Shown: piece after piece, positions 40,461 through 59,633 of the stretch
Position numbering within the stretch: position 1 is the first letter of the stretch
How the letters are laid out: every line of letters begins with the position of its first letter
DNA from: a plasmid
Reading direction: 5' to 3' (one strand)
DNA: 64,000 nt
Sequence record: NZ_CP041047.1
Program-made: the position numbers and the translations under genes
The notes under the pieces: generated by a model
Database searches by the model: none
What the model was told of the DNA's origin: nothing
The model's input: only the letters and a program-made list of their open reading frames with translations

Positions 40461-41246
40461 TTATCTGGCGGCAATTACCGCATCTGCAATTTCCACAAAA
40501 CCAGCACCTCCCGGGCCACGGGTGATCCACTGTGGAGGTTTCGGGATTTGATCAAGGAAATCTGATACCGTGCTCACTCCCACCGTATGTTCAAAGAATG
40601 AAAACATCGGCGCATCATTCGTCGAGTCGCCGCTATACAATACGGCAGAACGTTCGGCATCAATGTCGAGATCGTAATAATCCCTGAGCACTCGTCGGGC
40701 CATAGATAACTTGTCATACTCTCCAGACCAACCAAGAATCCAGAGATTGTTTACGGTGGTTGTCGCACCTGCTTGCGTCAATGCGTTAAGTATTAATGAA
40801 CACTGATGGGCTTCTGGCGGTTTAGCAAAGGCAATGGACGTCATCCTGAAAGGTTGATCGTCGGCAAAATGAGCGGCAGGAATTTCCCTTTTTATCTGTT
40901 CCCCAATTTGCGTCAGGCGCTCAGCGACGTCAGGATATTTTTCTGTGCCGTGCCAGAAGAAACGCTCAATGCCATGACCGTCATTTTGCCTCCTGAAAAA
41001 CACACCGCCATTTTCACCAATGACACCATCAACTGGCCACATCCGTGCCATCTGGTCGCACCAGCCGGCTGGCGCGGCTGTGACCGGTATCACTTTGACT
41101 CCCGCGTTCTGCAACCGTTCCAACGCCATATAGGTTTCAGCCGCAAGGCGCCCCTTGTAAGTCAGCGTTTCATCCATGTCTGTGAGAACAAAACGCACAT
41201 GTTTAAATGTTGACGAATCTGCGGAACAGATCTCTTTCATAAGCAC
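40461..41246 (-). CDS. HAD-superfamily hydrolase (Cof/subfamily IIB-like)
   Basis: motif I LTDMDETLT, C-terminal GDSTNDAPMF. Confidence 0.7.
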   Translation of the reverse strand: MLMKEICSADSSTFKHVRFVLTDMDETLTYKGRLAAETYMALERLQNAGVKVIPVTAAPAGWCDQMARMWPVDGVIGENGGVFFRRQNDGHGIERFFWHGTEKYPDVAERLTQIGEQIKREIPAAHFADDQPFRMTSIAFAKPPEAHQCSLILNALTQAGATTTVNNLWILGWSGEYDKLSMARRVLRDYYDLDIDAERSAVLYSGDSTNDAPMFSFFEHTVGVSTVSDFLDQIPKPPQWITRGPGGAGFVEIADAVIAAR

Positions 41247-41530
41247 GCTCGAAGACTTGTAGAGATAATAATGGTTTATAATTAAACGACTTATGGAATT
41301 ATTAAAGTCAAAATCGTACTAAGTTATAATTTTTATTGCGTTATTTACACCTCAGAGTCGCGTTTGGGCGGTGAAGGTGTGCTGGGTGCGGTTCAGATGC
41401 AGCATGTTCATACTCACACAACTTAACATCTCCCAACGGCTCTCGTCGAGTCATGGCGTTCTGAATGAAATCGGAGAAATCTTGCGATGACTAGTCGAAA
41501 AATTAAACTGTTATTTTATTACAACATGAT

Positions 41531-41556
41531 ATCCGGGGTTCTCTCCCCGGATATTT
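41531..41556 (-). terminator. perfect 10-bp hairpin downstream of eriC-F operon
   Basis: ATATCCGGGG-AGAGAA-CCCCGGATAT; weak U tract. Confidence 0.35.
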
Positions 41557-41578
41557 TATCATGACTACTTTCCTGTAT

Positions 41579-41968
41579 TCAGGCAAACTCAGGTGCATGA
41601 AGGGAAATATGGTGAGCATGAGGCTCTTCACATTTTAATAGTACGGCATATACCTTTTTTAACTCTTCCATATTTTCATGAAGAAAAGCTCTCAGATTTT
41701 CTTCCGAGTCCAGTAGCTCGAGACACTGGGGATGTGTCATATTGGTTAACTCAGGATGATGGTGAGATAATCGTTTTCCGGGAAGATAACCGGAGGTGAC
41801 ATGATGTAATGTCGCTGCTTTAATGTCTGATTTCTTCGCCACGGAAAGAAGATGCTGCGCCAGTTGGGGAGCTAGTAATCTGTGCCAAAAACGTCTGGCA
41901 CTGGCTTTAGATGCGACTGGAAAATATAATCTTAAAGCGGCTAAAGTCTGGACTGCATCTGCACTCAT
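41579..41968 (-). CDS. hypothetical protein translationally coupled to eriC-F
   Basis: 129 aa, start overlaps eriC-F stop. Confidence 0.45.
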   Translation of the reverse strand: MSADAVQTLAALRLYFPVASKASARRFWHRLLAPQLAQHLLSVAKKSDIKAATLHHVTSGYLPGKRLSHHHPELTNMTHPQCLELLDSEENLRAFLHENMEELKKVYAVLLKCEEPHAHHISLHAPEFA

Positions 41969-43338
41969 TTAGAACTCTCCATTGTGACTTCTTTGTCTTT
42001 TTTCGGTTGGATTTTTATTTCATTTTCTTCACTTGATAACGCGAAAGATTTCTTCCTGCGAACAGCAGAAATTTCAGAAATGCGTAGCTCAGACGGAACA
42101 AGTGTACGGTATCGGCGGCTTTTGGCATGACCGACTCGCTGGGCATGATAAATCCCGGTATGTCCTGAAAAAAGATATGCCGTAAAGCAGCCGACGGCAG
42201 AAAATACCGCCATTTCGGTACCGAACAGTTCCATCGCCATAAAGGTTGTCGCAAGCGGGGTATTTGCCGCACCGGCAAACACAGCTACAAAACCTATCCC
42301 GGCCATAAAAGCAAATGGCATGTGCAGAAGAGGAGCGAGAGCATTCCCCAGAGTGGCACCAATGTAAAACAGAGGTGTGACCTCACCACCTTTAAATCCT
42401 GTCGCCAGAGAAACGATGGTAAAGCTCATTTTTCCCATAAAATCCATCGGATATAGCGGTTCTTTAAAGGCTCGGACAATTTCCGGAATACCGAGACCAA
42501 TATAACGGTCAGTACCGATAAACCAGACGGCGGCAGCAATCAGTATCCCTCCGAAAAAAGGACGCAAAGGAGCATATTTAATGTAACGTTTAACGATCCC
42601 ACTAGCCTTTCCGGTCGCGACAGAGAATACCATTCCTGCCAGCCCGAATACGGCACCCGCTATCACAACGGACAGGAAACTCCATATAGTAAATGCCGGG
42701 ATGAAATCGATGCGGTAATGTGTGTGATGTACCCCCCATGCCAGACAGACCTGATCGGCAAGCACTGCGGCAACCAGACAGGGGAACAGCGCGTCATAAC
42801 GAATTCGCCCTATTGCCAGTACTTCCATCCCAAAGATAGCACCGGCCATCGGGGTACCGAATACTGACGAAAAGCCCGCGCTCATCCCAGCCATCAGCAG
42901 TATCCGACGAGCGTCTTTCTTCACTTTAAACATATGCGTCAACTGATCGGCCAGGGCTCCCCCCATCTGAACCGCCGTCCCTTCGCGCCCTACCGAAGCG
43001 CCAAACAGATGCGACATGAGGGTACCGCCCAGAACCAGTGGCACCATCCTTATCGGAACCACCTTTCTCGGATCGTGTATCTCATCGATAATCAGGTTAT
43101 TGCCAGCGTTGACGGGCTCGCCATACCAGCTGTAAACCAGTCCGACCAGGAGACCTGCCAGTGGAAGCAACCATATCATCCAGGAATGGGATTCCCGCCA
43201 TGCTGTGGCATTATCGAGTGAGAGCAGAAATACCGCGGATGCAGTACCTGCCAGTAATGCGATAAGACTCGCAGTAACTAACCATGCCCCTATATAGGAA
43301 AATAATTCAATTTGATCGTGGTGTTTTAGTCGTTTCAT
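41965..43338 (-). CDS. eriC-F: CLC-F fluoride/proton antiporter
   Basis: CLC-F signatures GNNLI and GREGT (instead of GSGIP/GKEGP), GTPMAG; true start ATG 43338 (AGGA RBS); fluoride riboswitch upstream. Confidence 0.85.
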   Translation of the reverse strand: MKRLKHHDQIELFSYIGAWLVTASLIALLAGTASAVFLLSLDNATAWRESHSWMIWLLPLAGLLVGLVYSWYGEPVNAGNNLIIDEIHDPRKVVPIRMVPLVLGGTLMSHLFGASVGREGTAVQMGGALADQLTHMFKVKKDARRILLMAGMSAGFSSVFGTPMAGAIFGMEVLAIGRIRYDALFPCLVAAVLADQVCLAWGVHHTHYRIDFIPAFTIWSFLSVVIAGAVFGLAGMVFSVATGKASGIVKRYIKYAPLRPFFGGILIAAAVWFIGTDRYIGLGIPEIVRAFKEPLYPMDFMGKMSFTIVSLATGFKGGEVTPLFYIGATLGNALAPLLHMPFAFMAGIGFVAVFAGAANTPLATTFMAMELFGTEMAVFSAVGCFTAYLFSGHTGIYHAQRVGHAKSRRYRTLVPSELRISEISAVRRKKSFALSSEENEIKIQPKKDKEVTMESSK

Positions 43339-43380
43339 TGGTCCTGGCTCGTGAGTTTCAGGGCTGACCAATGGGGAGTG

Positions 43381-43424
43381 CAGAAAATAGCCTACAGTAC
43401 CGACAAAGGTCAGTGTTCTGTAGG
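43381..43424 (-). terminator. riboswitch expression-platform terminator
   Basis: CCUACAG...CUGUAGG stem sharing the aptamer 3' CCUAC, followed by CUAUUUUCUG. Confidence 0.65.
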
Positions 43425-43473
43425 CGTCATTAACTGTCAGAAAACAGTGGTTATAAGGAGGAACGCCATCTCC
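43420..43473 (-). promoter_or_regulatory. fluoride riboswitch (crcB motif) aptamer
   Basis: RNA GGAGAUGGCGUUCCUCC-UUAUAAC-CACUGU...ACAGU-UAAUGACGCCUAC matches consensus GGnGAUGGnGUUCnCC...UAAUGAnnCCUAC; pseudoknot GGCGU/ACGCC; TATAGT -10 about 7 nt upstream. Confidence 0.85.
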
Positions 43474-43694
43474 GCCGGGCACTATACCTGTTCTGCCCAA
43501 CGTTGACCATGATTTTTCCTGCTTCGCCTGCGGAATTAGCCTCCCCTCATTCGCAAAACCGTAACGGATCGCCGGAAAATGGAGTGTTCCGCAGATTGTC
43601 TGCCAGTGAAATATTATTCAGGATAGACAGACCAAGATACAGGAAATGAAGATGACAGTTTTTAAATATTGCCACTGCCATCTCCCACCCATCA

Positions 43695-44273
43695 TTAAAT
43701 TTTGAATAATTTTAAGCTGATTGTTTTAAAAAAAGAGAATACATATTCACCTTTATATTTCCATAACCGGCAGAAAAGAGCATTAGACACCATCCCCGTG
43801 ATGACACCTCCTATCATATCGAGAGGAAAATGTACGCCAAGATAAATACGTGACCAGGCGACCAGAATACTAATGCCCAACACCACCAGGCCGGTACGTA
43901 CTGCCTTTGCGCTGATCAGCGCAAGCGCAAAACACACAAAAATGGTCATATGATCACTCGGGAATGAGTAATCTGCCGTATGCGAAAACCAGACATAGCC
44001 CAGCGGAACCATAAATGGTCTTGGATGCGGCCAGAAGGTTCCAATAATCAGGCTCAACACTACACCAATGACCATTGTTAACGTTGAGCGAAGCGCCAGT
44101 ATCTTTCCTTTTTCTTTACCGGCAAACCATAAAAAAATAATAATAAATGGTATGGCATAAATAAGGGTATTCGCAAAAAAATTCGCAATAACCAGAGCTG
44201 AATCAGGCGTTCCAGGCTTAGCGTTCATAGCAAGGAAAATTTTTCTGTTCAGAGTTTCAATTTCATTCAGCAT
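43695..44273 (-). CDS. PAP2-family lipid phosphatase (PgpB/YbjG-like)
   Basis: PAP2 motifs PHPRPF, FPSDHM, SRIYLGVHFPLD; six TM helices. Confidence 0.7.
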   Translation of the reverse strand: MLNEIETLNRKIFLAMNAKPGTPDSALVIANFFANTLIYAIPFIIIFLWFAGKEKGKILALRSTLTMVIGVVLSLIIGTFWPHPRPFMVPLGYVWFSHTADYSFPSDHMTIFVCFALALISAKAVRTGLVVLGISILVAWSRIYLGVHFPLDMIGGVITGMVSNALFCRLWKYKGEYVFSFFKTISLKLFKI

Positions 44274-44497
44274 AAATGTTAATTACCCAGAAAAAAGAAG
44301 CATAATACTGCCTGATTCTTAATATTCACTTAAGAAAAATCCATGATGGCTGGCAGATCCCCCCAGATTCTCACCGTTCATTCTCGCTGAAGCCCTGGAG
44401 GGATAGGATGACACCGCGCGTAAGGAATAACCTACACAACAGAGAACAATAATTGATATTGATTTATTGCAACGGTCCATATAAGATTGATCAACAA

Positions 44498-44565
44498 GGT
44501 GATGGTGCTCCACCTTACCCAACCGCCGGTTTCTTTAAAAACCGGATGATGACGCCTGATATACA
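44498..44565 (+). promoter_or_regulatory. fluoride riboswitch (crcB motif) aptamer
   Basis: GGUGAUGGUGCUCCACC-UUACCCAAC-CGCCGG(loop)CCGG-AUGAUGACGCCUGAU; P1 GGUG/CACC; 3' CCUGAUAUACA can pair with UGUAUGUCAGG spanning the start codon. Confidence 0.7.
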
Positions 44566-44592
44566 GTTGAATTAGTCCTTTTATAGGCATGT

Positions 44593-45570
44593 ATGTCAGG
44601 TATCGCTATGAAAAATCAAACCACATTACCGCTTACCTCAGAATCTCTCTCTTTTCAAAGAGATAATCCAATCCATGTCTTCGGTCATCGAAATCCTGAC
44701 AGCGATGCTATCTGCAGCGCGCTGGTTGTGGCTGACTGGCTTAATTACACTGGTCGTCCCGCAACGCCCTGGCGCCTGGGGGATATCACCCCGGAAACCC
44801 GTTACATCCTCAATGTCGCGGGTGTTTCACAACCTGATTTACTCACCGCCGACTTGACTGATAAAACCGTATGGCTGGTTGATTTTACGGATGCGGAGCA
44901 GGGACCATCCTCGTTGATGGACAGCAACGTCATCGGCATCATTGACCATCATCGTATTGGCACCCTCATTACCCGCAATCCACCGGATGTCTGGGTGCGG
45001 GCGGTAGGATGCTGCGGAACCGTAATTCTCTCAATTCTGATGCATGACATTCCGATGCCGATTACGGCATCTCAGGCAGTGTTGCTGATGGGGGCGATCC
45101 TCAGTGATACCGTTGCGCTGACTGGCCCCACCACCACCACTCAGGATCAGGAAGCCGTGGCAGTTTTGCGTGAAATCGCCGGTATCGATTATGACCAGTT
45201 TGTGACAGGGCTACTGCGTGCCAAAACAGATATAACCGGGCAATCCACATCGGTATTACTCAATCGTGACGCCAAAAATTACCGGATCCATGATGTGCCG
45301 CTGTTGTTGTCACAAATTGAGGTACGCGACATGGCTGATATTACTCCCCTGTTGCCCGCGCTGCTGCAGGAAATGGATAAAACCTGTAAAGACAGTTCGC
45401 TGGACATGGTTATTTTGATGGTGACAGACATCACCAACCGGAACTCCGTTTTACTTTTTTCAGATAGCAGCCTGACAGGCTCTCTCCAGATGTCGCTGCC
45501 CGGTATGACAAGCCGGAAGAAAGAAATCCTGCCCTGGCTGACCGACCACTTCGCTTCTTATAAGAGGTGA
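44593..45570 (+). CDS. ppaC: DHH-family II (Mn-dependent) inorganic pyrophosphatase-like phosphoesterase
   Basis: DHH motifs HRNPDSDAICSA, GIIDHHRIG; 325 aa. Confidence 0.7.
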   Translation: MSGIAMKNQTTLPLTSESLSFQRDNPIHVFGHRNPDSDAICSALVVADWLNYTGRPATPWRLGDITPETRYILNVAGVSQPDLLTADLTDKTVWLVDFTDAEQGPSSLMDSNVIGIIDHHRIGTLITRNPPDVWVRAVGCCGTVILSILMHDIPMPITASQAVLLMGAILSDTVALTGPTTTTQDQEAVAVLREIAGIDYDQFVTGLLRAKTDITGQSTSVLLNRDAKNYRIHDVPLLLSQIEVRDMADITPLLPALLQEMDKTCKDSSLDMVILMVTDITNRNSVLLFSDSSLTGSLQMSLPGMTSRKKEILPWLTDHFASYKR

Positions 45571-45573
45571 TTT

Positions 45574-46002
45574 ATGCAAATTTACCGGCATGCCTTATTA
45601 CTTGTACAGAATGAAACCGATGGTCTGCTGTTGCTTGAGCAGGCAGAACGTCTGGCAAAAGAGATGGGCACCCGTATTACTGTCGGCCATCTCAGCGCTG
45701 ACTACCGGGAACTGGATTATACCAGTGATTCATTAACTAAAGATCGCCAGTCACACGAAGTTATTGATGCAAAGGCAATGCTGAGCCGTCTGGTGGAGTC
45801 CAGCAGTATTGATATCAAAGTCAGGTCCATCGTCAGTATCCATCGTTTCCGGGACGTCGAAGCCGTTGTTCAGCACGAAGATATTGATCTGGTCATGCTG
45901 GGGCATAAAAACCGCCTGTTCGGGGTTTTTTCTTCCTACTCTTTCGAATTTATCAATCACCTTTCTGTTGATGTTTTGATTAAACACATTCCAACCCCAT
46001 AA
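45574..46002 (+). CDS. usp: universal stress protein family
   Basis: 142 aa UspA fold, VMLGHKNR. Confidence 0.7.
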   Translation: MQIYRHALLLVQNETDGLLLLEQAERLAKEMGTRITVGHLSADYRELDYTSDSLTKDRQSHEVIDAKAMLSRLVESSSIDIKVRSIVSIHRFRDVEAVVQHEDIDLVMLGHKNRLFGVFSSYSFEFINHLSVDVLIKHIPTP

Positions 46003-47304
<1,302 letters not shown>

Positions 47305-47313
47305 TTCCGTCAC

Positions 47314-47343
47314 CCTTCCCGTATGCTTAGCTACGGGAAGGGG
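47314..47343 (+). other. strong RNA hairpin after eno without U tract
   Basis: CCCTTCCCGTA-loop-TACGGGAAGGG. Confidence 0.4.
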
Positions 47344-47355
47344 TAAGGTGATCCT

Positions 47356-47550
47356 ATGAACGGAAAAATACTCATACTGTCAACAGCAACGGGGATCCTG
47401 GCAACCTGTCTGGTTTTCCTGATCGCCGATGTCTTTTTTAACGTACTGCCAGATGATACCAGCGCTGTTGTAATCGCGCTGTTCATCGGGAGCTGCACCC
47501 ATCTTCTGATGCGCCACCTCCTTGACCGGAGCCCAGGTAAATTCAGGTAA
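47356..47550 (+). CDS. small two-TM membrane protein inside fluoride operon
   Basis: 64 aa, AAGGTGA RBS. Confidence 0.35.
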   Translation: MNGKILILSTATGILATCLVFLIADVFFNVLPDDTSAVVIALFIGSCTHLLMRHLLDRSPGKFR

Positions 47551-47622
47551 TCAGTACAAACAACTGAACGGGTTCAGGTCCTTCAGGTTCAGTCGCTGTT
47601 GGTGACCGACAGGTAGTTGCTT

Positions 47623-48309
47623 ATGGGAAAAATTATTTTACTCCGCCATGGAGAGAGTCAGTGGAATCAGCAAAATCGTTTTACCGGATGGGAAGATGTT
47701 CCGCTGACGCAGAAAGGAGTGGAGGAAGCCCGGCGCGCAGCAAACCTGATAAAACGGTCGGGGATCATCATTGATGGTGCCTGCACATCCGTTCTGAATC
47801 GGGCAATTCATTCACTCTGGCTGATAATGGAAACGCTGAATCAATTGTGGTTACCGGTGGACAAATCATGGCGGTTAAATGAACGCCATTACGGTGCGCT
47901 TCAGGGAATGAATAAGGATGAAGCCGCTCAACAAATTGGCCAGAATATCGTTTATCACTGGCGGAGGAGCTATCGTGGCATCCCTCCTCCGTTGCTGGAT
48001 GCGCCTGCTTTACTTCATCGTGAGGCACGTTATCGCCATGTGTCCCTGACGGACCTACCGGCGGGTGAAAGTCTGGAAATGACGCAGCGAAGGCTGCTGC
48101 CTTACTGGCACCACGTCATTGTCCCGCGTGTTGCCAGTGGTGAAACCATGCTGCTGGTCAGTCATGCTAATGCATTGCGTGCGCTAACCATGTTTATTGA
48201 GCAGATTGATGAGAACAAGGTTCCCGATCTGCATGTCCTGACGGGTATCCCCGTACTGTATGAAATGAATGAAAATCGGGCCATCACCGCACGTTATTCC
48301 CTTGAATGA
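47623..48309 (+). CDS. gpmA: 2,3-bisphosphoglycerate-dependent phosphoglycerate mutase (GpmA-like)
   Basis: LLRHGESQWN catalytic motif, WLPVDKSWRLNERHYGALQG. Confidence 0.8.
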   Translation: MGKIILLRHGESQWNQQNRFTGWEDVPLTQKGVEEARRAANLIKRSGIIIDGACTSVLNRAIHSLWLIMETLNQLWLPVDKSWRLNERHYGALQGMNKDEAAQQIGQNIVYHWRRSYRGIPPPLLDAPALLHREARYRHVSLTDLPAGESLEMTQRRLLPYWHHVIVPRVASGETMLLVSHANALRALTMFIEQIDENKVPDLHVLTGIPVLYEMNENRAITARYSLE

Positions 48310-48343
48310 CGGTCTGATGGTGCCCTGATTTCTGCGAGGTGGT

Positions 48344-48718
48344 ATGTACAAATCATTATTCGCGGTAGTGATAGGCGGCTCGATCGGCTGTGTGATCCGC
48401 TGGATACTGTCCATGCGTCTCAATGCACTTTTCCCCAATCTTCCACCTGGCACCCTGGTGGTTAATCTGGTTGGCGGATTTATCATCGGTATGGCACTGG
48501 CCTTCTTTGTCCGGCAGCCTCACCTCGATCCCGCCTGGAAGTTTTTTATTACCACCGGCTTATGCGGCGGTATGACCACCTTTTCCACTTTTTCAGCTGA
48601 GGTGGTAGTTCTACTTCAGAATGGCAATTATGCATGGGCTGTCATTTCCGTACTGACGCACGTAACTGGCTCGCTTTTGATGACTGCAGCCGGTTTTTTT
48701 GTAATGACACTGTTGTAA
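48344..48718 (+). CDS. crcB: fluoride channel CrcB/Fluc
   Basis: 124 aa, GGFIIG...CGGMTTFSTF motifs. Confidence 0.9.
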   Translation: MYKSLFAVVIGGSIGCVIRWILSMRLNALFPNLPPGTLVVNLVGGFIIGMALAFFVRQPHLDPAWKFFITTGLCGGMTTFSTFSAEVVVLLQNGNYAWAVISVLTHVTGSLLMTAAGFFVMTLL

Positions 48719-48791
48719 AGGCATATGCGCCATACACTTAACCGGTGCCATGTCTCCGTCAGACTTTTATTATATCGGCATAACAACACGC

Positions 48792-48814
48792 CTGACCTGC
48801 CGGGTCAGTTTTTT
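48792..48814 (+). terminator. intrinsic terminator / attenuator immediately upstream of P-type ATPase RBS
   Basis: CTGACC-tgccg-GGTCAG followed by TTTTTT, 15 nt before ATPase ATG. Confidence 0.6.
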
Positions 48815-48828
48815 CCGGAGAAGGATGT

Positions 48829-51165
48829 ATGGAGATGACCCCTGAGAATAACGTGAAGGGACTTTCCGAAGCCGAGGTGCAGGCCAGGCTGGTGCAATAT
48901 GGCTATAACGAAGTACGTGAACAGCCTCCGGGCCAGCTGCGTACGATCCTCAAACGTCTGTGGGGCCCCATCCCCTGGATGCTCGAAATTGCGCTGGTAC
49001 TCGAAGTGGCTCTGGGAAAGACGGTTGAACCCGCCATCATTGCAGGATGGCTCGCTTTCAGTGCGGTCCTTGGCGGCATTCAGGAACGGCGGGCACAGTC
49101 AGCACTTGACCTGCTGCGTAGTCGGCTGAAAGTTAATACCAGTGTATGCCGTGATGGCACCTGGCGCCAGATACCGGCCCGAGGGCTTGTCCCCGGTGAC
49201 TTTATCGTCTTAACGGCGGGGAACCTGGTCCCTGCCGACTGTATGATTGATGAGGGAGTCGTGGATGTTGACCAGGCAGCCCTGACCGGGGAGTCGACCC
49301 AGGAGTCACACAACAAGGGTGATACTCTCTATTCAGGATCGACGATTACACGCGGTAAGGCGACAGGAACCGTCACCGCCACCGGTACCCGAAGCTACTT
49401 TGGGCGTACGGCAGAGCTGGTACGAACGGCCAGCTCTGCCAGCCATCTTGAACAGCTTCTGTTCGCTGTTGTGCGCTATCTTGTGACCATTGACGCCGTG
49501 CTTGCGGTCATTCTGGCCGTTGTTGCACTCTGGCGCGGTGAAGATTTGTTGCCCCTCGTCCCCTTTTTTCTTGTTCTCATTATTGCGACCGTCCCGGTGA
49601 CAATGCCGGCAGCCTTTACGGTCGCCAATGCAGTGGAAGCCCGGCGACTGGCGAATCAGGGGGTACTTGTCACCGGCCTGTCAGCGGTACAGGAAGCGGC
49701 AACCATGGATGTGCTGTGTATCGACAAAACCGGTACACTGACCAGAAACCAGCAGTCAGTTGCCGGCATAACGGCGCTTCCGGGAGAGAATGAGGACGAG
49801 GTACTGGCCTGGGCTGCCGCAGCCTGCGACGAAACGATGCAGGGGCAACTTGAGATGGCGATTCTGGATGCGTTACGACGCCGGGGGGGAATGCCGCACA
49901 TCCGTGAGCAATTCATCCCGTTCGATCCTGCCACGAAACGTTCCGAAGCCCGTGTGTGTTCAGACAATGACGGATCGTCCGTTCACGTCATTCTGGGTTC
50001 ACCGATGGTCGTTGCATCACTCGCCGAATCTCCTCCTGAGTTCACCACGATCCAGCAGGCCATGGCGGCGTCCGGCGCCAGGATCCTGGCAGTCGCAACC
50101 GGCACCGACGGCCATCTCCGTATCCGAGGGTTGCTGGCACTAGCCGATACACTACGCGATGATGCCGCAGCCCTCGTCAGGGATATCCGGGCACTGGGTA
50201 TCAGGATAATCATGGTCACCGGTGATACGGTTGATACCGCCAGAGTTATCAGCCGCCAGGCAGGACTCGGTGACCGCTTCGGCGATGCAGCCAGGGACCT
50301 GCAGGCACCTCTCCACTTTGATGGTTTTGCTAACTTCTATCCGGAGGAAAAATTCCGTCTGGTGCAGTCCCTGCAACAAACGGGCTGTATAGTCGGCATG
50401 ACGGGTGACGGTGTGAATGATGCGCCGGCACTGAAACAAGCCGGAGTGGGCATTGCCGTACAAACAGCGTCTGACGTGGCAAAAGCAGCTGCTCAGGTGG
50501 TATTGACCCACCCCGGGTTAGACGGTGTTGCCGCCGTCGTATCAGGGGGCCGCTGTGTGTTTCGCCGTATGCTGACCTGGACAATAACGAAAATAGCCCG
50601 GACCGTTGAGCTGGCGGCCCTGCTGACCATCGGCTATATCGCGACAGGATTCTTCGTCACACCGCTGGTTCTGATTGCCGTGATTGTGGTTCTCAATGAT
50701 GTGGTGACCATCACGCTGGCGACAGACCGGTCATGGATTTCTTCATCACCGGAAAGATGGAACGTTGGTGAAATTGCCAGGCTGGGAGGTGTCCTGGCCG
50801 CAGGCTGGCTGGTTCTGGCATTCATTATCCTGTGGTTCGTCCTTACCAGGTTGCAGCTTCCCGTCCCACAAATCCAGGCCCTGATGTTCGCCTATCTGAT
50901 GTATACGGCCCAGATGACGATTTATCTTTCACGAACGCCGGGCCGCTGCTGGTCACTCCGGCCGGGCCGGTTTGTTGTGTTGGCCACGGTGGGCAATATC
51001 ATCATTGCCACCGTACTGGCTGCCGGTGGTTTTCTTATGACGCCGGTTTCACTGACACTGCTGGTCATCATGTTTGCTCTGGTTTTGCTGGCCACCCTTC
51101 TGCTCGATCAGATCAAGATATGGCTCTTCGCCAGAAGACCTGTTGAGGACTCACCGAAAAGCTGA
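48829..51165 (+). CDS. P-type cation-transporting ATPase (type III H+/Mg2+-like)
   Basis: DKTGTLT phosphorylation site, MVTGD, GDGVNDAPAL; 778 aa. Confidence 0.8.
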   Translation: MEMTPENNVKGLSEAEVQARLVQYGYNEVREQPPGQLRTILKRLWGPIPWMLEIALVLEVALGKTVEPAIIAGWLAFSAVLGGIQERRAQSALDLLRSRLKVNTSVCRDGTWRQIPARGLVPGDFIVLTAGNLVPADCMIDEGVVDVDQAALTGESTQESHNKGDTLYSGSTITRGKATGTVTATGTRSYFGRTAELVRTASSASHLEQLLFAVVRYLVTIDAVLAVILAVVALWRGEDLLPLVPFFLVLIIATVPVTMPAAFTVANAVEARRLANQGVLVTGLSAVQEAATMDVLCIDKTGTLTRNQQSVAGITALPGENEDEVLAWAAAACDETMQGQLEMAILDALRRRGGMPHIREQFIPFDPATKRSEARVCSDNDGSSVHVILGSPMVVASLAESPPEFTTIQQAMAASGARILAVATGTDGHLRIRGLLALADTLRDDAAALVRDIRALGIRIIMVTGDTVDTARVISRQAGLGDRFGDAARDLQAPLHFDGFANFYPEEKFRLVQSLQQTGCIVGMTGDGVNDAPALKQAGVGIAVQTASDVAKAAAQVVLTHPGLDGVAAVVSGGRCVFRRMLTWTITKIARTVELAALLTIGYIATGFFVTPLVLIAVIVVLNDVVTITLATDRSWISSSPERWNVGEIARLGGVLAAGWLVLAFIILWFVLTRLQLPVPQIQALMFAYLMYTAQMTIYLSRTPGRCWSLRPGRFVVLATVGNIIIATVLAAGGFLMTPVSLTLLVIMFALVLLATLLLDQIKIWLFARRPVEDSPKS

Positions 51166-51229
51166 ACACAGATTATAACCGTTCGCCATAGCCTGAACGG
51201 TTATCGCCTGTCGGGCTATGTGGGGGCAT

Positions 51230-52750
51230 TCAGCTGCGTTCAGCGGGTTGTGCCGGAGGCGTGAAGACCTCCCGGTAGAGGTCTTCACCATAGCTGGTAT
51301 CCAGTGGTGTCCCTTCCGTCATGCGGAACGTTCTTTCACCATCATCACGCCTCTCCGCGCACAGATAAACCGTATCCTGGTGATACTCCTGATAAAATGC
51401 GCAGGCAAATTCCGACGTGTGTGTGACGAAAAACAGCTTCACATGACACTCTGCCAGCGCGGTCACTATCCCCCTGATAATACCGGCTCCTTCCCGGCTG
51501 TTGGTGGCGGCAAACGATTCATTAAACAACACCAGATCATCCGGCTTCAGTTCGCTAACGATATCCCGCATGCGTCTGAGCTCTTCATCAAGCTTTCCGC
51601 TGACCATATGGCTGTCTTCTTCACATTTATAATGAGTAAAAATCTGCCGGCAGATATCGGAACTGAAACATTCAGCAGACACAAACATTCCCGTCTGCAT
51701 CATTATCTGAGCCAGGCCAATGCTGCGCAGGAACGTTGATTTTCCACCCTGGTTAGCCCCGGTAATAATAAAGGTATTTTTATTATCCGTTTTCAGGGTA
51801 TTACTGATGACAGTATCCGGAGAGGTCAGCGCCAGACAGGTATCAAATAATGAATCAAAGACCAGATGGCGCTCCCTTTTGTAGATCGGAACCGGAAAAC
51901 ACTGTGGCACATTCCGGTGATTCAGCACCTCAGCAAGATTCAGGCAGGCGATATAGAAACCCAGCTCAGCACGCAACGCGCGAAAGAAATTGAGCAGATG
52001 TGCTGTAGACTGAGCCATTGCGCTGGCAACCAACACCAGTCCTTCATCCTGCAGGTCACTGAGTGCCCTGAACCCATTTTCATCCCGGGGAGCAATCTGT
52101 ACCGTATAATGTTCCGGTTTGCGGGAAAACAGACGCCGGAACCAGTTTCTGCTCTCCGCGGCAGGCTGGCGAAGAACATAGGCCTCCCCCCGGTTTCCCG
52201 CCCCCAGTCTGGCGCTCAGCAATACCCCTTTTTTAAATGTCATCTGCCTGAGGTGTTCCTCGATCACCTCAAGGTATTCATCATTCAGCTCCTGCATAAT
52301 CATGACAAACAGGCGTTCCATACCGGGTGAGGCGACATGAAGAAGGTTTTTCTCCGCTATTCCCCTGACCTTACGTAAATTGTCCAGCAGAAAACGGGTG
52401 AACGAAATGGACTGATGAAGAATGGCGGAAGGGTATCGCCCGAAAATACCGTAATGGAGTTTTTCCTTTTCCATTAACAGGCAGTCCACCACAATTTTAT
52501 AAAATTCCCTGAAAATTTCAGGATTGTAGAGACAATCGCGCAGGATAGCCTGCCGGTATTCAATATCCTGTACCTCGGTCAATGGTTGTGAACACGCTTT
52601 TCTCACCACCGAATACAGAAAATCATCCCCACCGGAAAGCGCCTGAAAGAGGACATCCAGCTCAAGGTCTTTAGTCAGAAGGGTAAAGTGGGCAGGAAAT
52701 GATTCATCCACGATAAAATCATCATGTTTATACATCAGGTATGCTTTCAT
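51230..52750 (-). CDS. MutS-domain (III/V) ABC-ATPase family protein lacking mismatch-binding domain
   Basis: Walker A ITGANQGGKSTFL, LVLFNESFAATNS...FFVTHTSEF (MutS domain V); start ATG 52750 overlaps upstream stop. Confidence 0.65.
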   Translation of the reverse strand: MKAYLMYKHDDFIVDESFPAHFTLLTKDLELDVLFQALSGGDDFLYSVVRKACSQPLTEVQDIEYRQAILRDCLYNPEIFREFYKIVVDCLLMEKEKLHYGIFGRYPSAILHQSISFTRFLLDNLRKVRGIAEKNLLHVASPGMERLFVMIMQELNDEYLEVIEEHLRQMTFKKGVLLSARLGAGNRGEAYVLRQPAAESRNWFRRLFSRKPEHYTVQIAPRDENGFRALSDLQDEGLVLVASAMAQSTAHLLNFFRALRAELGFYIACLNLAEVLNHRNVPQCFPVPIYKRERHLVFDSLFDTCLALTSPDTVISNTLKTDNKNTFIITGANQGGKSTFLRSIGLAQIMMQTGMFVSAECFSSDICRQIFTHYKCEEDSHMVSGKLDEELRRMRDIVSELKPDDLVLFNESFAATNSREGAGIIRGIVTALAECHVKLFFVTHTSEFACAFYQEYHQDTVYLCAERRDDGERTFRMTEGTPLDTSYGEDLYREVFTPPAQPAERS

Positions 52751-53071
52751 CCGTTTAACCCCGCTTTTATTTTTTCGTAGGTCAGCCCATATTTCTGCAC
52801 CAGGGTGACCGACCATGCCACGCCATCAGCAGGTTTCCTGATAATTTTATAGGTCCGGGAGGCCTCATTATCCTCTTCCACCGTACTCATCATGCTGACG
52901 ACTGACGTATCCAGTGCCGTCAGTTCATCGATAAACGTCACGCAGATACAAATGGCATCCAGCGCGATGACCTTTTCAATGATCCGGGTACCCAGAAAAA
53001 TCGCATCGTGTGAGGTTGTGGAGGTGAATATCTCATTCATAATGATGAGACTGCGGGTAGTGGATTTATCC
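52747..53071 (-). pseudogene. MutS-domain ATPase paralog, 5' part removed by IS26
   Basis: C-terminal LIIMNEIFTSTTSHDA...FIDELT resembles MutS domain V; reading frame runs into the IS26 IR at 53072. Confidence 0.5.
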
Positions 53072-53891
53072 GGCACTGTTGCAAATAGTCGGTGGTGATA
53101 AACTTATCATCCCCTTTTGCTGATGGAGCTGCACATGAACCCATTCAAAGGCCGGCATTTTCAGCGTGACATCATTCTGTGGGCCGTACGCTGGTACTGC
53201 AAATACGGCATCAGTTACCGTGAGCTGCAGGAGATGCTGGCTGAACGCGGAGTGAATGTCGATCACTCCACGATTTACCGCTGGGTTCAGCGTTATGCGC
53301 CTGAAATGGAAAAACGGCTGCGCTGGTACTGGCGTAACCCTTCCGATCTTTGCCCGTGGCACATGGATGAAACCTACGTGAAGGTCAATGGCCGCTGGGC
53401 GTATCTGTACCGGGCCGTCGACAGCCGGGGCCGCACTGTCGATTTTTATCTCTCCTCCCGTCGTAACAGCAAAGCTGCATACCGGTTTCTGGGTAAAATC
53501 CTCAACAACGTGAAGAAGTGGCAGATCCCGCGATTCATCAACACGGATAAAGCGCCCGCCTATGGTCGCGCGCTTGCTCTGCTCAAACGCGAAGGCCGGT
53601 GCCCGTCTGACGTTGAACACCGACAGATTAAGTACCGGAACAACGTGATTGAATGCGATCATGGCAAACTGAAACGGATAATCGGCGCCACGCTGGGATT
53701 TAAATCCATGAAGACGGCTTACGGCACCATCAAAGGTATTGAGGTGATGCGTGCACTACGCAAAGGCCAGGCCTCAGCATTTTATTATGGTGATCCCCTG
53801 GGCGAAATGCGCCTGGTAAGCAGAGTTTTTGAAATGTAAGGCCTTTGAATAAGACAAAAGGCTGCCTCATCGCTAACTTTGCAACAGTGCC
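53072..53891 (+). mobile_element. IS26 (copy 1), 820 bp
   Basis: 14-bp IRs GGCACTGTTGCAAA / TTTGCAACAGTGCC; no flanking 8-bp duplication. Confidence 0.95.
53135..53839 (+). CDS. tnpA: IS26 transposase Tnp26 (variant with Gly at position 196)
   Basis: MNPFKGRHFQRDIILWAVRW...; differs from copy 2 at KTAYGTIKG vs KTAYATIKG. Confidence 0.95.
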   Translation: MNPFKGRHFQRDIILWAVRWYCKYGISYRELQEMLAERGVNVDHSTIYRWVQRYAPEMEKRLRWYWRNPSDLCPWHMDETYVKVNGRWAYLYRAVDSRGRTVDFYLSSRRNSKAAYRFLGKILNNVKKWQIPRFINTDKAPAYGRALALLKREGRCPSDVEHRQIKYRNNVIECDHGKLKRIIGATLGFKSMKTAYGTIKGIEVMRALRKGQASAFYYGDPLGEMRLVSRVFEM

Positions 53892-54153: not shown

Positions 54154-55845
54154 ATGCGAACCAACATGCCAGTAACAAATTCCGAGTACATCTTGAAGGA
54201 CACGGAAACGATCGTTTCCAAGACTGATTTGAGCGGGAATATCACCTACGTTAACCAGGATTTCTGCATTATCAGCGGCTTCTCGGAAGAAGAACTAATT
54301 GGATCGCCGCAAAATATCGTGCGTCACCCGGATATGCCGGCTGAGGCGTTCAAAGATTTCTGGAGCACTATCAAGGCCGGCAAAGCGTGGACTGGCCTGG
54401 TGAAAAATCGCTGCAAGAACGGCGATTATTATTGGGTCGAGGCCAATGTCGCGCCCATGCTGGAAAACGGCAAAATGGTCGGGTACACATCGATTCGCGT
54501 CAAGCCCAGCCGGGAGCAGGTAGCTGCCGCTGACAAAGCCTATCGCACGATCAAAAGTGGCAGCAACGAACTTCAGGTGCACGAAGGCTCGGTCGTCGCG
54601 CGCTCATTCTTCCGGCGCTTCGACTGGCTGGCGATCCTGTCGATCAGATCGAAAATCATGCTGTCGTCCGGGCTGCTGACGCTTCTGTTCATTGCAAACC
54701 TGGTCTTCTCGGCTTCTGGAAACAAGCAATTCGACGCATGGTCGAGCGCCGCTTCCATCCTCGGCATCGTCCTGGGCCTGGTGTCTGGATTCCTGCTGTA
54801 CCGCGCCGTCGTCGTGCCGCTGCAAAACGTCAAGCATGACATCGAACGGATGAGCGCGGGCGACCTGAGCGCCAAGATCGACGCCAATGGCGACGATGAG
54901 CTGGCGCAGATGATCCAATCGCTGCGCGTGCTGCAAACTAATGTGAAGCTATTGGTCGGCCAGATCAAGGAAGCGACCGATGTCGTCAATAGCGACGCCG
55001 CGGAAATCGCAACCGGCAATGCAGACCTGTCGGCCCGCACCGAATCGCAGGCTAGCTCACTGGAGGAAACCGCTTCCTCGATGGAAGAACTGACCAGCAC
55101 CGTGAAACAGAACGCCGACAATGCACGCGAGGCAAACCGACTGGTTGCGTCTGCATCCGAAACTGCGATAAAAGGCGGCCAGGCGGTCGGCCAGGTGGTC
55201 GGCACGATGGGGTCAATCAAGGAAAGCTCCCGCAAGATCGTCGATATCATCGGCGTCATCGACGGCATCGCGTTCCAGACCAACATCCTGGCCTTGAACG
55301 CAGCAGTCGAGGCCGCGCGCGCCGGCGAACAGGGCCGCGGCTTCGCGGTGGTAGCCGCCGAAGTGCGCAATCTTGCACAACGCTCGGCAGGCGCCGCCAA
55401 AGAAATCAAGTCCCTGATCAGCGACTCGGTCGAGAGAGTCGAGGCTGGCAGCAAGCTGGTCGACGATGCCGGCAAGACGATGGATGAGATCGTCACACAA
55501 GTCAAACAGGTTGCCGGCTACATGAGCGACATCACCTTGGCCAGCCAGGAACAAAGCGAAGGAATCGAACAAGTCAATCAAGCGATCACGCAGATGGACG
55601 AGGTGACGCAGCAAAATGCGGCGCTGGTCGAACAAGCGGCAGCCGCTGCCGAGGAAATGCAAAGCCAGGCAGGAAAACTGGCCCAGCTGGTCGACAGTTT
55701 CAAACTGGTCTCCGGTGCACAGGCAACGCGAAGTGGCAACACGCAGCCTGTTGCCATACGCGCGCCCACCCCGGTTGCACGCAAGCCTGTTGCCGCGATC
55801 CGGACGGCAACCCCGAAAAAACTTGCTCTAACCGGCAGGCGGTAG
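54154..55845 (+). CDS. PAS-domain methyl-accepting chemotaxis protein (Aer-like), foreign high-GC origin
   Basis: N-terminal PAS (NITYVNQDFCIISGF), two TM helices, HAMP, MCP signalling domain (NILALNAAVEAARAGEQGRGFAVVA). Confidence 0.8.
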   Translation: MRTNMPVTNSEYILKDTETIVSKTDLSGNITYVNQDFCIISGFSEEELIGSPQNIVRHPDMPAEAFKDFWSTIKAGKAWTGLVKNRCKNGDYYWVEANVAPMLENGKMVGYTSIRVKPSREQVAAADKAYRTIKSGSNELQVHEGSVVARSFFRRFDWLAILSIRSKIMLSSGLLTLLFIANLVFSASGNKQFDAWSSAASILGIVLGLVSGFLLYRAVVVPLQNVKHDIERMSAGDLSAKIDANGDDELAQMIQSLRVLQTNVKLLVGQIKEATDVVNSDAAEIATGNADLSARTESQASSLEETASSMEELTSTVKQNADNAREANRLVASASETAIKGGQAVGQVVGTMGSIKESSRKIVDIIGVIDGIAFQTNILALNAAVEAARAGEQGRGFAVVAAEVRNLAQRSAGAAKEIKSLISDSVERVEAGSKLVDDAGKTMDEIVTQVKQVAGYMSDITLASQEQSEGIEQVNQAITQMDEVTQQNAALVEQAAAAAEEMQSQAGKLAQLVDSFKLVSGAQATRSGNTQPVAIRAPTPVARKPVAAIRTATPKKLALTGRR

Positions 55846-55957
55846 TGCGGTAACTAGAACCAACATTTGAAACATTGCTGAATGGCGCGTCATCACCGCT
55901 TATTCTGGGAGAAATGAAATGCTAAACTCATTTACGTAGGAATCCTTGCGGTCCCCC

Positions 55958-56077
55958 ATGACCGAACAGTTCGACGCCAAGTCGGCCGAGATTCGCGCGA
56001 TGCTCAACAACCAACTCGAACCAAAGCACACGGCCGAGATCCGCGAGCGCATGCTGGCGGCGGGCTTGCCGATATAA
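55958..56077 (+). CDS. small ORF (39 aa) downstream of MCP
   Basis: ATG..TAA read directly, same GC-rich codon usage as MCP; below ORF-track cut-off. Confidence 0.2.
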   Translation: MTEQFDAKSAEIRAMLNNQLEPKHTAEIRERMLAAGLPI

Positions 56078-56079
56078 GC

Positions 56080-56260
56080 CATCATTTGCAGTTAGCGTGA
56101 GCCGACGGCGGTGAAATGCGAGCTGGCGCCATCGACTGCAAGCTCGTTTGCAGATATTGAGAGCATGTGCGCTCCGTCATTTGCAGTTAATTCGAGCCGA
56201 AACCGGTGTCAAATGCGAGCACGGCCGATTTCAAACGCGAGCCGCTACAGCTAAGCCCCT
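56080..56260. repeat. imperfect direct repeats (TCATTTGCAGTTA and AAATGCGAGC, twice each)
   Basis: read directly: catttgcagttagcgtgagccgacggcggtgaaatgcgagc ... catttgcagttaattcgagccgaaaccggtgtcaaatgcgagc. Confidence 0.5.
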
Positions 56261-56360
56261 CCTTTTTTTTAACAGTGGCAGGGACTGCTAAAAATGAATG
56301 ATGGTAGGCGGGATTTCTCAATAAGGAACTAACATGGCTGACTGGTTTATTGCGACTGAG

Positions 56361-57180
56361 GGCACTGTTGCAAAGTTAGCGATGAGGCAGCCTTTTGTCT
56401 TATTCAAAGGCCTTACATTTCAAAAACTCTGCTTACCAGGCGCATTTCGCCCAGGGGATCACCATAATAAAATGCTGAGGCCTGGCCTTTGCGTAGTGCA
56501 CGCATCACCTCAATACCTTTGATGGTGGCGTAAGCCGTCTTCATGGATTTAAATCCCAGCGTGGCGCCGATTATCCGTTTCAGTTTGCCATGATCGCATT
56601 CAATCACGTTGTTCCGGTACTTAATCTGTCGGTGTTCAACGTCAGACGGGCACCGGCCTTCGCGTTTGAGCAGAGCAAGCGCGCGACCATAGGCGGGCGC
56701 TTTATCCGTGTTGATGAATCGCGGGATCTGCCACTTCTTCACGTTGTTGAGGATTTTACCCAGAAACCGGTATGCAGCTTTGCTGTTACGACGGGAGGAG
56801 AGATAAAAATCGACAGTGCGGCCCCGGCTGTCGACGGCCCGGTACAGATACGCCCAGCGGCCATTGACCTTCACGTAGGTTTCATCCATGTGCCACGGGC
56901 AAAGATCGGAAGGGTTACGCCAGTACCAGCGCAGCCGTTTTTCCATTTCAGGCGCATAACGCTGAACCCAGCGGTAAATCGTGGAGTGATCGACATTCAC
57001 TCCGCGTTCAGCCAGCATCTCCTGCAGCTCACGGTAACTGATGCCGTATTTGCAGTACCAGCGTACGGCCCACAGAATGATGTCACGCTGAAAATGCCGG
57101 CCTTTGAATGGGTTCATGTGCAGCTCCATCAGCAAAAGGGGATGATAAGTTTATCACCACCGACTATTTGCAACAGTGCC
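56361..57180 (-). mobile_element. IS26 (copy 2), inverted relative to copy 1
   Basis: IRs GGCACTGTTGCAAA / TTTGCAACAGTGCC; truncates an ORF start (MADWFIATE) at 56334-56360. Confidence 0.95.
56413..57117 (-). CDS. tnpA: IS26 transposase Tnp26
   Basis: 234 aa canonical Tnp26. Confidence 0.95.
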   Translation of the reverse strand: MNPFKGRHFQRDIILWAVRWYCKYGISYRELQEMLAERGVNVDHSTIYRWVQRYAPEMEKRLRWYWRNPSDLCPWHMDETYVKVNGRWAYLYRAVDSRGRTVDFYLSSRRNSKAAYRFLGKILNNVKKWQIPRFINTDKAPAYGRALALLKREGRCPSDVEHRQIKYRNNVIECDHGKLKRIIGATLGFKSMKTAYATIKGIEVMRALRKGQASAFYYGDPLGEMRLVSRVFEM

Positions 57181-57216
57181 AAAAATACCCTCAGCAATTA
57201 GTGTACTGAGGGTATT
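57181..57216 (-). terminator. nhaA rho-independent terminator
   Basis: AATACCCTCAG...CTGAGGGTATT hairpin followed by U-run on minus strand. Confidence 0.65.
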
Positions 57217-57309
57217 GTTAACCATCCGTAGGATCGTTCAACTGATCAATGCCTTAACTGATCGGTGTTATCCCGATTGGGAGGCTTTACAAAATAGCTC
57301 ATTTTTATC

Positions 57310-58461
57310 TTACGCTTGCGCTTTCTTAGGCAAAGAAAAGTGCAGTAAGGCATAGCCAAGTAATGCTGCTGTCGTAGAACCCATTAAGATACCGAGTCGA
57401 GCATAGGTATCAAATTCAGGACTTACATTTCCGAACGCTAAAGAGGAAATGAAGATAGACATTGTAAAGCCAATACCACACAACACAGATACCGCAAAGA
57501 TATGCTTGAAGTTAACGCCTTCAGGTAACTTAGCAACGCCCATTTTTACCGCTGCCCAGCTAAAGGTAAAGATACCTAGAGGCTTACCAACCAGTAGACC
57601 CAAAGCAATACCGAGTGGCAGCATTGAAGTTAGACCTGACATCGATACGCCTTCTAACGAAATCCCCGCATTGGCAAATGCGAATAGAGGCAGAATACCA
57701 AATGCCACGTATGGGTGAAGCGCGTGCTCCATATGTTTAAGTGGAGAATGTTCGCCCTGCTTTCCCTTTAGTGGGATAGCAAAACCAATCACTACACCTG
57801 CCAATGTTGCGTGAACACCAGATTTAAGCACCGCGAACCATAAGATCGCACCGACGATCATGTATGGCGTAAGTTTTGTTACTTCCTTCGCATTCAACAT
57901 GAATAGGACACCAGTCATGATGAAGCCAACAAGCAACGCCATGGTCGACAGGTCACCGGTGTAAAATAGCGCGATAATAACAACTACACCTAAATCATCG
58001 ATGATAGCAACCGCCAGCAAGAACACTTTTAGGCTTACTGGTACACGCTTACCTAATAACGCCATGATACCTAAAGCAAAAGCGATATCTGTCGCCGCTG
58101 GAATTGCCCAACCAGAAATCGCCTCAGGATCGTTGGCATTAAAGGCTACGTAAATAAGAGCAGGAGTTAATATACCGCCAACCGCTGCAATCGCAGGGAA
58201 AATTGCGGTTTCTTTTGATTTTAACGCACCTTCAAGCAGCTCTCGCTTAACTTCAAGGCCAATGAGTAAGAAGAAAACAGCCATTAGGCCGTCATTAATC
58301 CAGTGAGAAACTGACATACCAAATACATAAGTATGCAGTACAGATTGATAAGTTTCGCCCAGCGGTGAGTTAGCAATGGTCATCGCAATTGCCGCGGCAA
58401 TCACGAGAAGAATACCACCAGCTGATTCCATTTTGAAAAAGTCACGAATGACATCGTTCAT
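57310..58461 (-). CDS. nhaA: Na+/H+ antiporter NhaA (Vibrio-like)
   Basis: [34 protein letters not shown]... full-length NhaA, 383 aa. Confidence 0.9.
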
Positions 58462-58865: not shown

Positions 58866-58920
58866 GGTGATGCTGCCAACTTACTGATTTAGTGTATGAT
58901 GGTGTTTTTGAGGTGCTCCA

Positions 58921-59618: not shown

Positions 59619-59633
59619 GTTGGAGTTATTACC

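Follow-up and report, generated by a model that had tools for sequence, protein, structure and literature searches.

The closest described relative of the locus presented here is the fluoride-resistance operon of Enterobacter cloacae FRM. This operon has a fluoride riboswitch upstream and is induced 8- to 177-fold by fluoride (Liu 2017, Sci Rep 7:6786; PMC5533749). Without fluoride there is almost no expression, and deletion of the operon lowers the minimum inhibitory concentration of fluoride from 4,000 to 1,500 mg/L (PMC5533749). The operon yields a long transcript and a short ppaC-uspA-eno transcript, the short one being ~10-fold more abundant (PMC5533749). In other Enterobacterales, Pantoea vagans pPV989-94 and related elements are reported to carry a crcB-gpmA-eno-uspA-ppaC five-gene set as a mobile fragment (PMC5971314). 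The likeness to this set is one of reported gene content, and the report describes neither CLC-F nor MutS/antiporter modules. The locus analyzed here lies in a 64,000-nt plasmid stretch of sequence record NZ_CP041047.1, referred to as the window, and coordinates are window positions unless another record is named. It belongs to a large enterobacterial plasmid and is a fluoride-resistance island under the control of riboswitches.

The interval 41.5-53.07 kb very probably represents, with the accessory HAD gene to its left (40.46-41.24 kb), a copy, truncated by IS26, of a horizontally mobile fluoride-resistance island of ~15 kb that occurs on large Enterobacteriaceae plasmids. It is expected to keep only the first two modules of that island. 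An Rfam scan of the whole window returns exactly two matches above the gathering score, both to RF01734 (gathering score 34 bits). Riboswitch 1 (RS1) has its aptamer on the minus strand at 43414-43482 (48.1 bits, E 3.1e-10, full model 1-64). Riboswitch 2 (RS2) has its aptamer on the plus strand at 44489-44565 (43.4 bits, E 1e-8, model positions 1-64 of 64). The distance from RS1 to the start of the CLC-F gene is 76 nt, and from RS2 to ppaC it is 43 nt.

An earlier note on this DNA had proposed a fluoride-resistance island with two crcB-motif riboswitches. Its core reading is right, as both the RF01734 matches and the CLC-F signatures were found when looked for. All gene families that it named are present in the open reading frame (ORF) listing and the Pfam/NCBIfam scans. 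The block was described as contiguous over 40461-58461, and this holds for 40461-53071. The right-hand 5.4 kb, composed of nhaA and two IS26 copies around a methyl-accepting chemotaxis gene (IS26-MCP-IS26), is foreign to the island. The island interval is 40461-53071, and the right end is to be cut back from 58461.

The gene order riboswitch-ppaC-uspA-eno-gpmA-crcB-P-type ATPase is the same in the window as in FRM. Gene lengths (963, 429, and 1287 bp) and intergenic distances (3 and 15 nt) are also identical, and the likeness to a fluoride-resistant Enterobacter determinant claimed by the earlier note is borne out. Sequences were compared through a proxy, L009, a chromosomal GI3-type locus of E. 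coli EH09-18-41. L009 has the FRM-type layout, with a 261-bp ATPase stub beside a 3060-bp RND gene, and shows 92.4% DNA identity to window 44445-49031. Its proteins are 94.4% (PpaC), 96.5% (Usp), 95.6% (Eno), and 98.4% (CrcB) identical to those of the window. Judged from order, sizes, and sequence identity to the proxy, the central module would be the known determinant. The central operon was characterized experimentally in 2017, in FRM, and the biology of the island is largely known.

Several features set the window apart from FRM. In FRM the ATPase gene is reduced to a stub of 261 bp that adjoins RND efflux genes, whereas the window ATPase has its full length of 778 aa. Unlike FRM, the window also holds a divergent PAP2 gene, a riboswitch-CLC-F-DUF190(-HAD) unit, and the remains of a third riboswitch module. 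The FRM copy is chromosomal, and the window copy is plasmid-borne. The larger island seems to have given rise to the FRM version by reduction.

Intact islands were compared in three lineages, with L001 (E. coli p027_SK3a), L007, and L008 as representatives. The first lineage is made up of MOBH/Col(VCM04)-typed plasmids of 250-360 kb from Citrobacter, E. coli, Klebsiella, and Salmonella, with 96-100% identity to the window. The second is composed of IncFIB/IncHI1B plasmids of K. pneumoniae (95%) and the third of IncFIB plasmids of K. pneumoniae (87-88%). A core of ~15 kb is common to all three and runs from ~60 bp downstream of the DUF190 gene to just upstream of the third riboswitch. The intact islands NZ_CP067312, NZ_CP018708, and NZ_CP042483 are 100%, 95%, and 87-88% identical to the window over 41.5-53.07 kb, and their gene order is the same.

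Rfam scans find three RF01734 riboswitches in each of L001, L007, and L008. RS1 precedes CLC-F-DUF190, and RS2 precedes ppaC-usp-eno-gpmA-crcB-ATPase. The third, RS3, precedes a PF00999 cation:proton antiporter, a second universal stress protein (Usp2), and two MutS_V ATPases. RS3 lies at 24920-24980 in L001, 21022-21084 in L007, and 22808-22868 in L008. Its scores of 56.6-59.4 bits are above those of both window riboswitches.

Compared with these islands, the window lacks the last ~3.3 kb and has IS26 in its place. The alignment to L001 is identical up to 53071 and unrelated from 53072. The IS26 event removed RS3, the cation:proton antiporter, Usp2, and ~80% of MutS-like 2. MutS-domain-V ATPase 1 (51230-52750, minus strand; PF00488, 72.8 bits) retains an intact ORF. 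It is the last gene of the RS3 operon in intact islands and in the window is separated from its native promoter and riboswitch. MutS-domain-V ATPase 2 survives as an IS26-truncated 3' remnant (52747-53071, minus strand) with 109 of its 512 codons. The MutS-domain ATPases of the earlier note are thus one intact ORF and a 109-aa C-terminal remnant.

The IS26 terminal repeat GGCACTGTTGCAAA occurs four times and delimits two inverted IS26 copies, at 53072-53891 and 56361-57180, with one base difference between them. The Pfam/NCBIfam scan places a PAS-HAMP methyl-accepting chemotaxis gene between the two, at 54154-55845. The 8-mers flanking IS26-MCP-IS26 differ, and no target-site duplication is present around it. 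Simple (composite-transposon) insertion was rejected on this ground, and the differing 8-mers point to a rearrangement or deletion mediated by IS26. No PLSDB plasmid has the junction of island and IS26 seen at 53071/53072. NZ_CP109745, which seemed to have a single MutS gene, was found to be intact on checking.

Losses on this scale, together with a junction common to no other PLSDB plasmid, could mean that the locus is in decay and largely without function, so that after the IS26 damage it no longer confers any meaningful resistance. This is quite unlikely. Modules 1 and 2 retain every ORF intact, and the identity to L001 over window 36053-53071 is 99.99%. Modules 1 and 3 are missing from versions of the FRM/GI3 type, whose ATPase is also truncated, but FRM still tolerates fluoride at 4,000 mg/L. 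The preferred reading remains a truncated island with two modules retained.

The Na+/H+ antiporter that the earlier note counted as an island member is NhaA (57310-58461, minus strand; TIGR00773, 636 bits; PF06965), which is 58% identical to E. coli NhaA. Its gene is wedged between IS26 and IS1 (58866-59633), 4.2 kb from the truncation point. That short distance gives some appeal to the idea that the IS26-linked nhaA functionally replaces the deleted antiporter and that the wider block is a selected, re-assembled unit. The idea is very improbable on the remaining evidence. The Rfam scan of the window gives no RF01734 match upstream of nhaA, and the PF06965 family of NhaA differs from the PF00999 family of the native antiporter of intact islands. 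The IS26-nhaA-IS1-HNH layout recurs in Citrobacter plasmid pKPC-933d (L002), where the compared stretch shows no island genes, and the segment has no target-site duplications. NhaA is not part of the island, because it has no riboswitch, belongs to a different family, lies beyond IS26-MCP-IS26, and occurs in the same layout in a pKPC-933d stretch without island genes. The HNH gene of this layout (59916-61529, minus strand) codes for a protein of 537 aa that has an HNH_2 endonuclease domain at its C terminus, and it is widely conserved beside IS1 on this plasmid family.

The distribution of the island was determined in PLSDB (72,556 plasmids) using a query without the IS26 end. The island or part of it is carried by 51 plasmids (~0.07%), including those of clinical Klebsiella and Citrobacter isolates, and 26 of them cover at least 80% of the query. 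A first count of 225 plasmid records (87 from Escherichia) was rejected, as it was inflated by 29 nt of IS26 in the query. Among 5,426 complete genomes of E. coli, only 2 gave a match. In Enterobacteriaceae, high-level fluoride tolerance would be seen to move on large plasmids, mostly conjugative or mobilizable, as a multi-module riboswitch-controlled package of which one module alone, that of FRM, has been the subject of experiments. In practice the island is of limited use, as a well-defined parts list for engineering fluoride-tolerant strains, e.g., for organofluorine degradation. The main gain of this analysis is the corrected right boundary and the IS26 truncation.

The leaders of the two retained modules differ in their predicted folds. 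RS1 is followed by an intrinsic terminator (43382-43425, minus strand) that reads GCCUACAG...CUGUAGGC and then UAUUUUCU. It folds at -20.4 kcal/mol (z = -5.45), and its 5' arm overlaps the 3' tail of the aptamer. A consensus scan finds a sigma-70-like promoter, TGGTCA-17-TATAGT (43481-43509, minus strand), immediately upstream of RS1. Its position fits a transcription start at the aptamer; in the same scan, promoter-like sites are not in excess across the region overall. From its folding, the RS1 layout would be the usual one for a transcriptional ON riboswitch.

RS2 has an expression-platform hairpin (44546-44609, plus strand; -19.8 kcal/mol, z = -2.5) without a U tract. The hairpin pairs the 3' tail of the aptamer with the AGG Shine-Dalgarno sequence and the start-codon region of ppaC. 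This fold suggests translational control, possibly with secondary effects on the mRNA level. The RS1 terminator is kept in L007 and L008 and the RS2 hairpin in L007, L008, and L009. The leader alignments for RS1 and RS2 are too alike to lend covariation support to the expression platforms. RS2 and the annotated riboswitch of the FRM-type locus L009 are nearly identical.

Module 1 contains the CLC-F (eriC-F) F-/H+ antiporter gene (41965-43338, minus strand). The best PDB match of its product is the E. casseliflavus CLC-F 6D0J (E 5.5e-62), while canonical Cl-/H+ CLCs match at 1.7e-12 or weaker. The motifs GNNLI, GREGT, and GGEVTP are present. In the alignment to 6D0J, GREGT of the window corresponds to GREGV, with the external gating Glu retained, and GNNLI corresponds to GMNLV. 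CLC-Fs retain the external Glu, lack the helix-D Ser, and possess either Asn and Thr or Met and Val (Brammer et al. 2014, PMC4113899). The window CLC is, by its motifs, a CLC-F of the N-T subclade, because the Asn of GNNLI occurs together with the Thr of GREGT. It resembles the riboswitch-controlled CLC-Fs already described (Stockbridge 2012; Brammer 2014; 6D0J) in its upstream fluoride riboswitch, the GREGT glutamate, the replacement of the helix-D Ser by Asn, and its best match to CLC-eca. The crystallized CLC-eca is of the M-V subclade, whereas the window protein is of the N-T subclade and is translationally coupled to a DUF190 gene.

The DUF190 gene (41579-41968, minus strand) encodes a PII-like protein of COG1993 (PF02641, 25.1 bits against a cutoff of 23.4). 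It overlaps the CLC-F stop codon by 4 nt. The protein has 90.7% amino-acid identity in L007, and the gene is kept in every full-island copy examined. A comparison of DUF190 with PDB sequences gives nothing significant.

Two phosphatase genes flank this unit. The HAD-IIB family phosphatase gene (40461-41240, minus strand; TIGR01484, 65 bits against a cutoff of 41.8) is accessory. It lies outside the core common to the Klebsiella plasmids, which has its left boundary at ~41515-41529. The gene is seen only in the MOBH-plasmid version of the island, where 96%-identical copies retain it. The PAP2 phosphatase, a YbjG-like undecaprenyl-diphosphatase (43695-44273, minus strand), matches PF01569 at 54.8 bits and NF008813 at 161.5 bits, below the cutoff of 229. 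Its gene is kept in all full-island copies examined.

Module 2 begins with ppaC (44608-45570, plus strand; alternative ATG at 44593), which encodes a family II (DHH/DHHA2) Mn-dependent inorganic pyrophosphatase. Its product contains the Pfam domains DHH and DHHA2, scores 282.9 bits against NF003877 (cutoff 283, borderline), and matches family II pyrophosphatases of the PDB at E 2e-49. The alignment to 6LL7 shows the motifs GHRNPDSD, IIDHHR, LSDTV, and TSRKKE, which represent the metal-binding and catalytic elements HxxPDxD, DHH, DT, and SRKK. Sequence comparison detects no similarity between PpaC and the family I Ppa of E. coli. Fluoride at 0.5 mM strongly inhibits family I pyrophosphatases, and inhibition of family II enzymes takes much more (2025 paper, PMC11857102). 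Replacement of yeast IPP1 by a family II enzyme gives fluoride tolerance (PMC11857102). Because family II is reported to be far less fluoride-sensitive and is unrelated to the host Ppa, a bypass of the sensitive enzyme suggests itself as more likely for this protein than an effect of dosage.

The universal stress protein gene usp (45574-46002, plus strand; PF00582) follows ppaC and is in turn followed by the enolase paralog gene eno (46018-47304, plus strand), whose product has the Enolase_N and Enolase_C domains. The paralog gene gpmA (47623-48309, plus strand; TIGR01258, 278 bits) encodes a phosphoglycerate mutase (dPGM) that depends on 2,3-bisphosphoglycerate. Eno is 54% identical to Eno of E. 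coli K-12 and GpmA 49% to GpmA of K-12, and active-site motifs are conserved in both. At this level of identity, eno and gpmA are best regarded as distant paralogs acquired horizontally, not as recent duplications. The earlier note had called eno, gpmA, and the pyrophosphatase gene extra copies of fluoride-inhibited enzymes; this stands for eno and gpmA as distant paralogs and fails for ppaC, which is no duplicate. Its description of the gpmA product as a classic fluoride-inhibited enzyme was overstated, as Liu et al. note that fluoride inhibition of phosphoglycerate mutase has not been reported (PMC5533749).

The enzymes of this operon have also been viewed in another light. The Pantoea plasmid paper classes gpmA, eno, and ppaC as glycometabolism genes and cites better growth on sucrose for the Erwinia plasmid pEI70 (PMC5971314). 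The block could accordingly be a carbon-metabolism or fitness module in which eno, gpmA, and ppaC boost glycolytic flux, as proposed for eno/gpmA on pEI70, and fluoride would be incidental. A fluoride riboswitch, however, stands at the head of the operon, a fluoride channel is among the products, and a second riboswitch with CLC-F flanks the operon. The near silence of the FRM operon without fluoride and the fluoride phenotype of its deletion (PMC5533749) also speak against this explanation, which has very little probability beside that of a fluoride-resistance island.

The crcB gene (48344-48718, plus strand; PF02537, 99.4 bits) encodes a Fluc fluoride channel. CrcB is a single-domain protein of 124 aa and is 54% identical to CrcB of E. 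coli K-12. The motif of the third transmembrane segment (TM3) of Fluc channels is GxxGGxTTFSTFxxE (PMC3755343), and the window CrcB carries it as GLCGGMTTFSTFSAE. The crystallized Fluc-Ec2 of an E. coli virulence plasmid (PDB 5A43; eLife 2013) is 71.8% identical and has the same motif but represents a different allele.

The last gene of the operon (48829-51165, plus strand) encodes a full-length type IIIA P-type ATPase of 778 aa. It scores 606.8 bits against TIGR01647, the H+-ATPase equivalog, and ~220 bits against the Mg and Ca type models. The best PDB matches are Neurospora and yeast PMA1 and plant AHA2 (E ~1e-103). The DKTGT motif is present (CIDKTGTLT), and an Asp aligns with Asp 730 in transmembrane segment 6 of Neurospora PMA1 chain 1MHS, which we take to be the proton-binding residue. 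The designation H+-ATPase-like is used because the TIGR01647 cutoff of 615.5 bits is narrowly missed. A proton pump would fit the acid load arising from entry of hydrogen fluoride (HF) and from F-/H+ antiport.

Two predicted structures lie within the operon. A GC-rich stem-loop directly after eno (47305-47365, plus strand) has a strong fold without a U tract and is a candidate partial terminator or 3'-end stabilizer. Between crcB and the ATPase gene, a sequence scan also finds a hairpin that resembles a terminator and has a T run (48792-48816, plus strand; hairpin 48792-48808 and tail). Either could explain the abundant short ppaC-uspA-eno transcript of FRM. Both are possible internal attenuation points and might explain the graded induction in FRM (~100-fold vs ~10-fold).

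A working model can be drawn from the families involved, except where a source is given. Fluoride would enter as HF, build up in the cytoplasm, and bind the two crcB-motif riboswitches. At RS1, the ligand would hold the 3' tail of the aptamer so that the overlapping terminator cannot form, and CLC-F and its DUF190 partner would be transcribed. At RS2, the hairpin masking the ribosome-binding site of ppaC would control ppaC-usp-eno-gpmA-crcB-ATPase. The products would act at three levels. The first would be fluoride export by the Fluc channel and CLC-F. At the second, metabolism would be kept running, with the additional enolase and dPGM adding lower-glycolysis capacity and family II PpaC being mechanistically distinct from the fluoride-sensitive family I enzyme of the host. 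The third would be pH and ion homeostasis by the H+-ATPase-like P-type pump.

The MutS-like pair and DUF190 are uncharacterized riboswitch-regulated genes that the island offers for further study. MutS-like genes reportedly figure among the genes associated with riboswitches of this class. MutS-like 1 and MutS-like 2 are only 22.5% identical to each other, and the Pfam search finds no domain in them beyond MutS domain V. A defense role for MutS-like 1 was rejected, as the PADLOC scan gives only a negligible NsnB match (E 1e-4). A rearranged relative in Hafnia psychrotolerans (L011, NZ_BMFZ01000004, 5002-13148) has a fluoride riboswitch upstream of an AraC-type regulator gene and of the MutS_V pair that follows it. 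Next to these are gpmA on the opposite strand and then a second riboswitch, upstream of ppaC-usp-eno. The association of the pair with a fluoride riboswitch thus extends to a second genus (70.5% amino-acid identity). Hafnia is the single locus found with MutS-like 1 in GTDB at one genome per species, by a method that finds close relatives only and says little on wider distribution. The surroundings of the Hafnia locus resemble an integrative and conjugative element, with TraG, UmuC, and IS110, and a STAXI RNA (113 bits) lies at 15777-15937.

It is possible, and is offered tentatively, that the conserved MutS-domain-V pair and DUF190 are real, undescribed parts of fluoride defense in a three-riboswitch, ~15-kb, 13-gene regulon whose enzyme set acts mainly by replacing sensitive host enzymes with insensitive isozymes and not by dosage. 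If so, a possible role of the MutS-like proteins would be ATP-driven rescue or repair of fluoride-poisoned nucleotide-dependent machinery, and DUF190 would be a PII-like regulator of the exporter. No description of the full three-riboswitch architecture or of the roles of DUF190 and the MutS-like pair could be found in the searchable literature. This includes any role of DUF190 in fluoride defense, and the literature search gave nothing relevant linking MutS with fluoride riboswitches.

Some observations weigh against the reading of the locus as a riboswitch-controlled resistance island equivalent in its center to FRM. The PAP2 gene is not behind a riboswitch, because it sits upstream of RS1. 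The link to FRM runs through a proxy locus with matching gene sizes and neighbors. The ATPase falls 9 bits short of the TIGR01647 cutoff, and the FRM strain is highly resistant although its own ATPase gene is cut to 261 bp. Finally, RS2 has no U-tract terminator although Liu et al. saw ~100-fold induction at the mRNA level. The translational reading of RS2 is uncertain for this reason, and secondary effects such as Rho termination or mRNA stabilization would be needed.

To the left of the island, the window contains a complete anti-phage Gabija pair (32427-35566, plus strand) composed of GajA (575 aa) and GajB (471 aa), with PADLOC scores of 716 and 567 bits, respectively. A C. amalonaticus Y19 plasmid (L013) has this pair as well, ~3 kb to the left of its island, and L001 has ISKpn26 instead. 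Farther left, at 26465-31753 on the plus strand, are two tyrosine-recombinase ORFs of 462 and 517 aa that overlap each other, match Phage_integrase weakly, and are followed by a 787-aa ORF. The latter has no Pfam or PADLOC match and shows 85.7% DNA identity to its L001 counterpart. The earlier note had placed the island as cargo next to a recombinase trio and defense genes. The recombinase ORFs and the Gabija pair are real, while the cargo claim is unsupported, because in Klebsiella plasmids of the types IncFIB and IncFIB/IncHI1B the 15-kb core has unrelated surroundings. There is no evidence that the island is cargo of the recombinase element.

Several conserved ORFs occupy the minus strand between Gabija and the island (35697-40077). 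They include a 331-aa protein at 36990-37985 with a sub-threshold HEPN match and a 398-aa protein at 38881-40077 without matches. These ORFs travel with the island in this plasmid family (99.99% identity to L001). An IS5-family element (22515-23722; ISKpn26-like, ~99% identical to the L001 copies) and a ParM-type plasmid segregation ATPase (24781-25842) lie near the recombinase ORFs and confirm the window as plasmid DNA.

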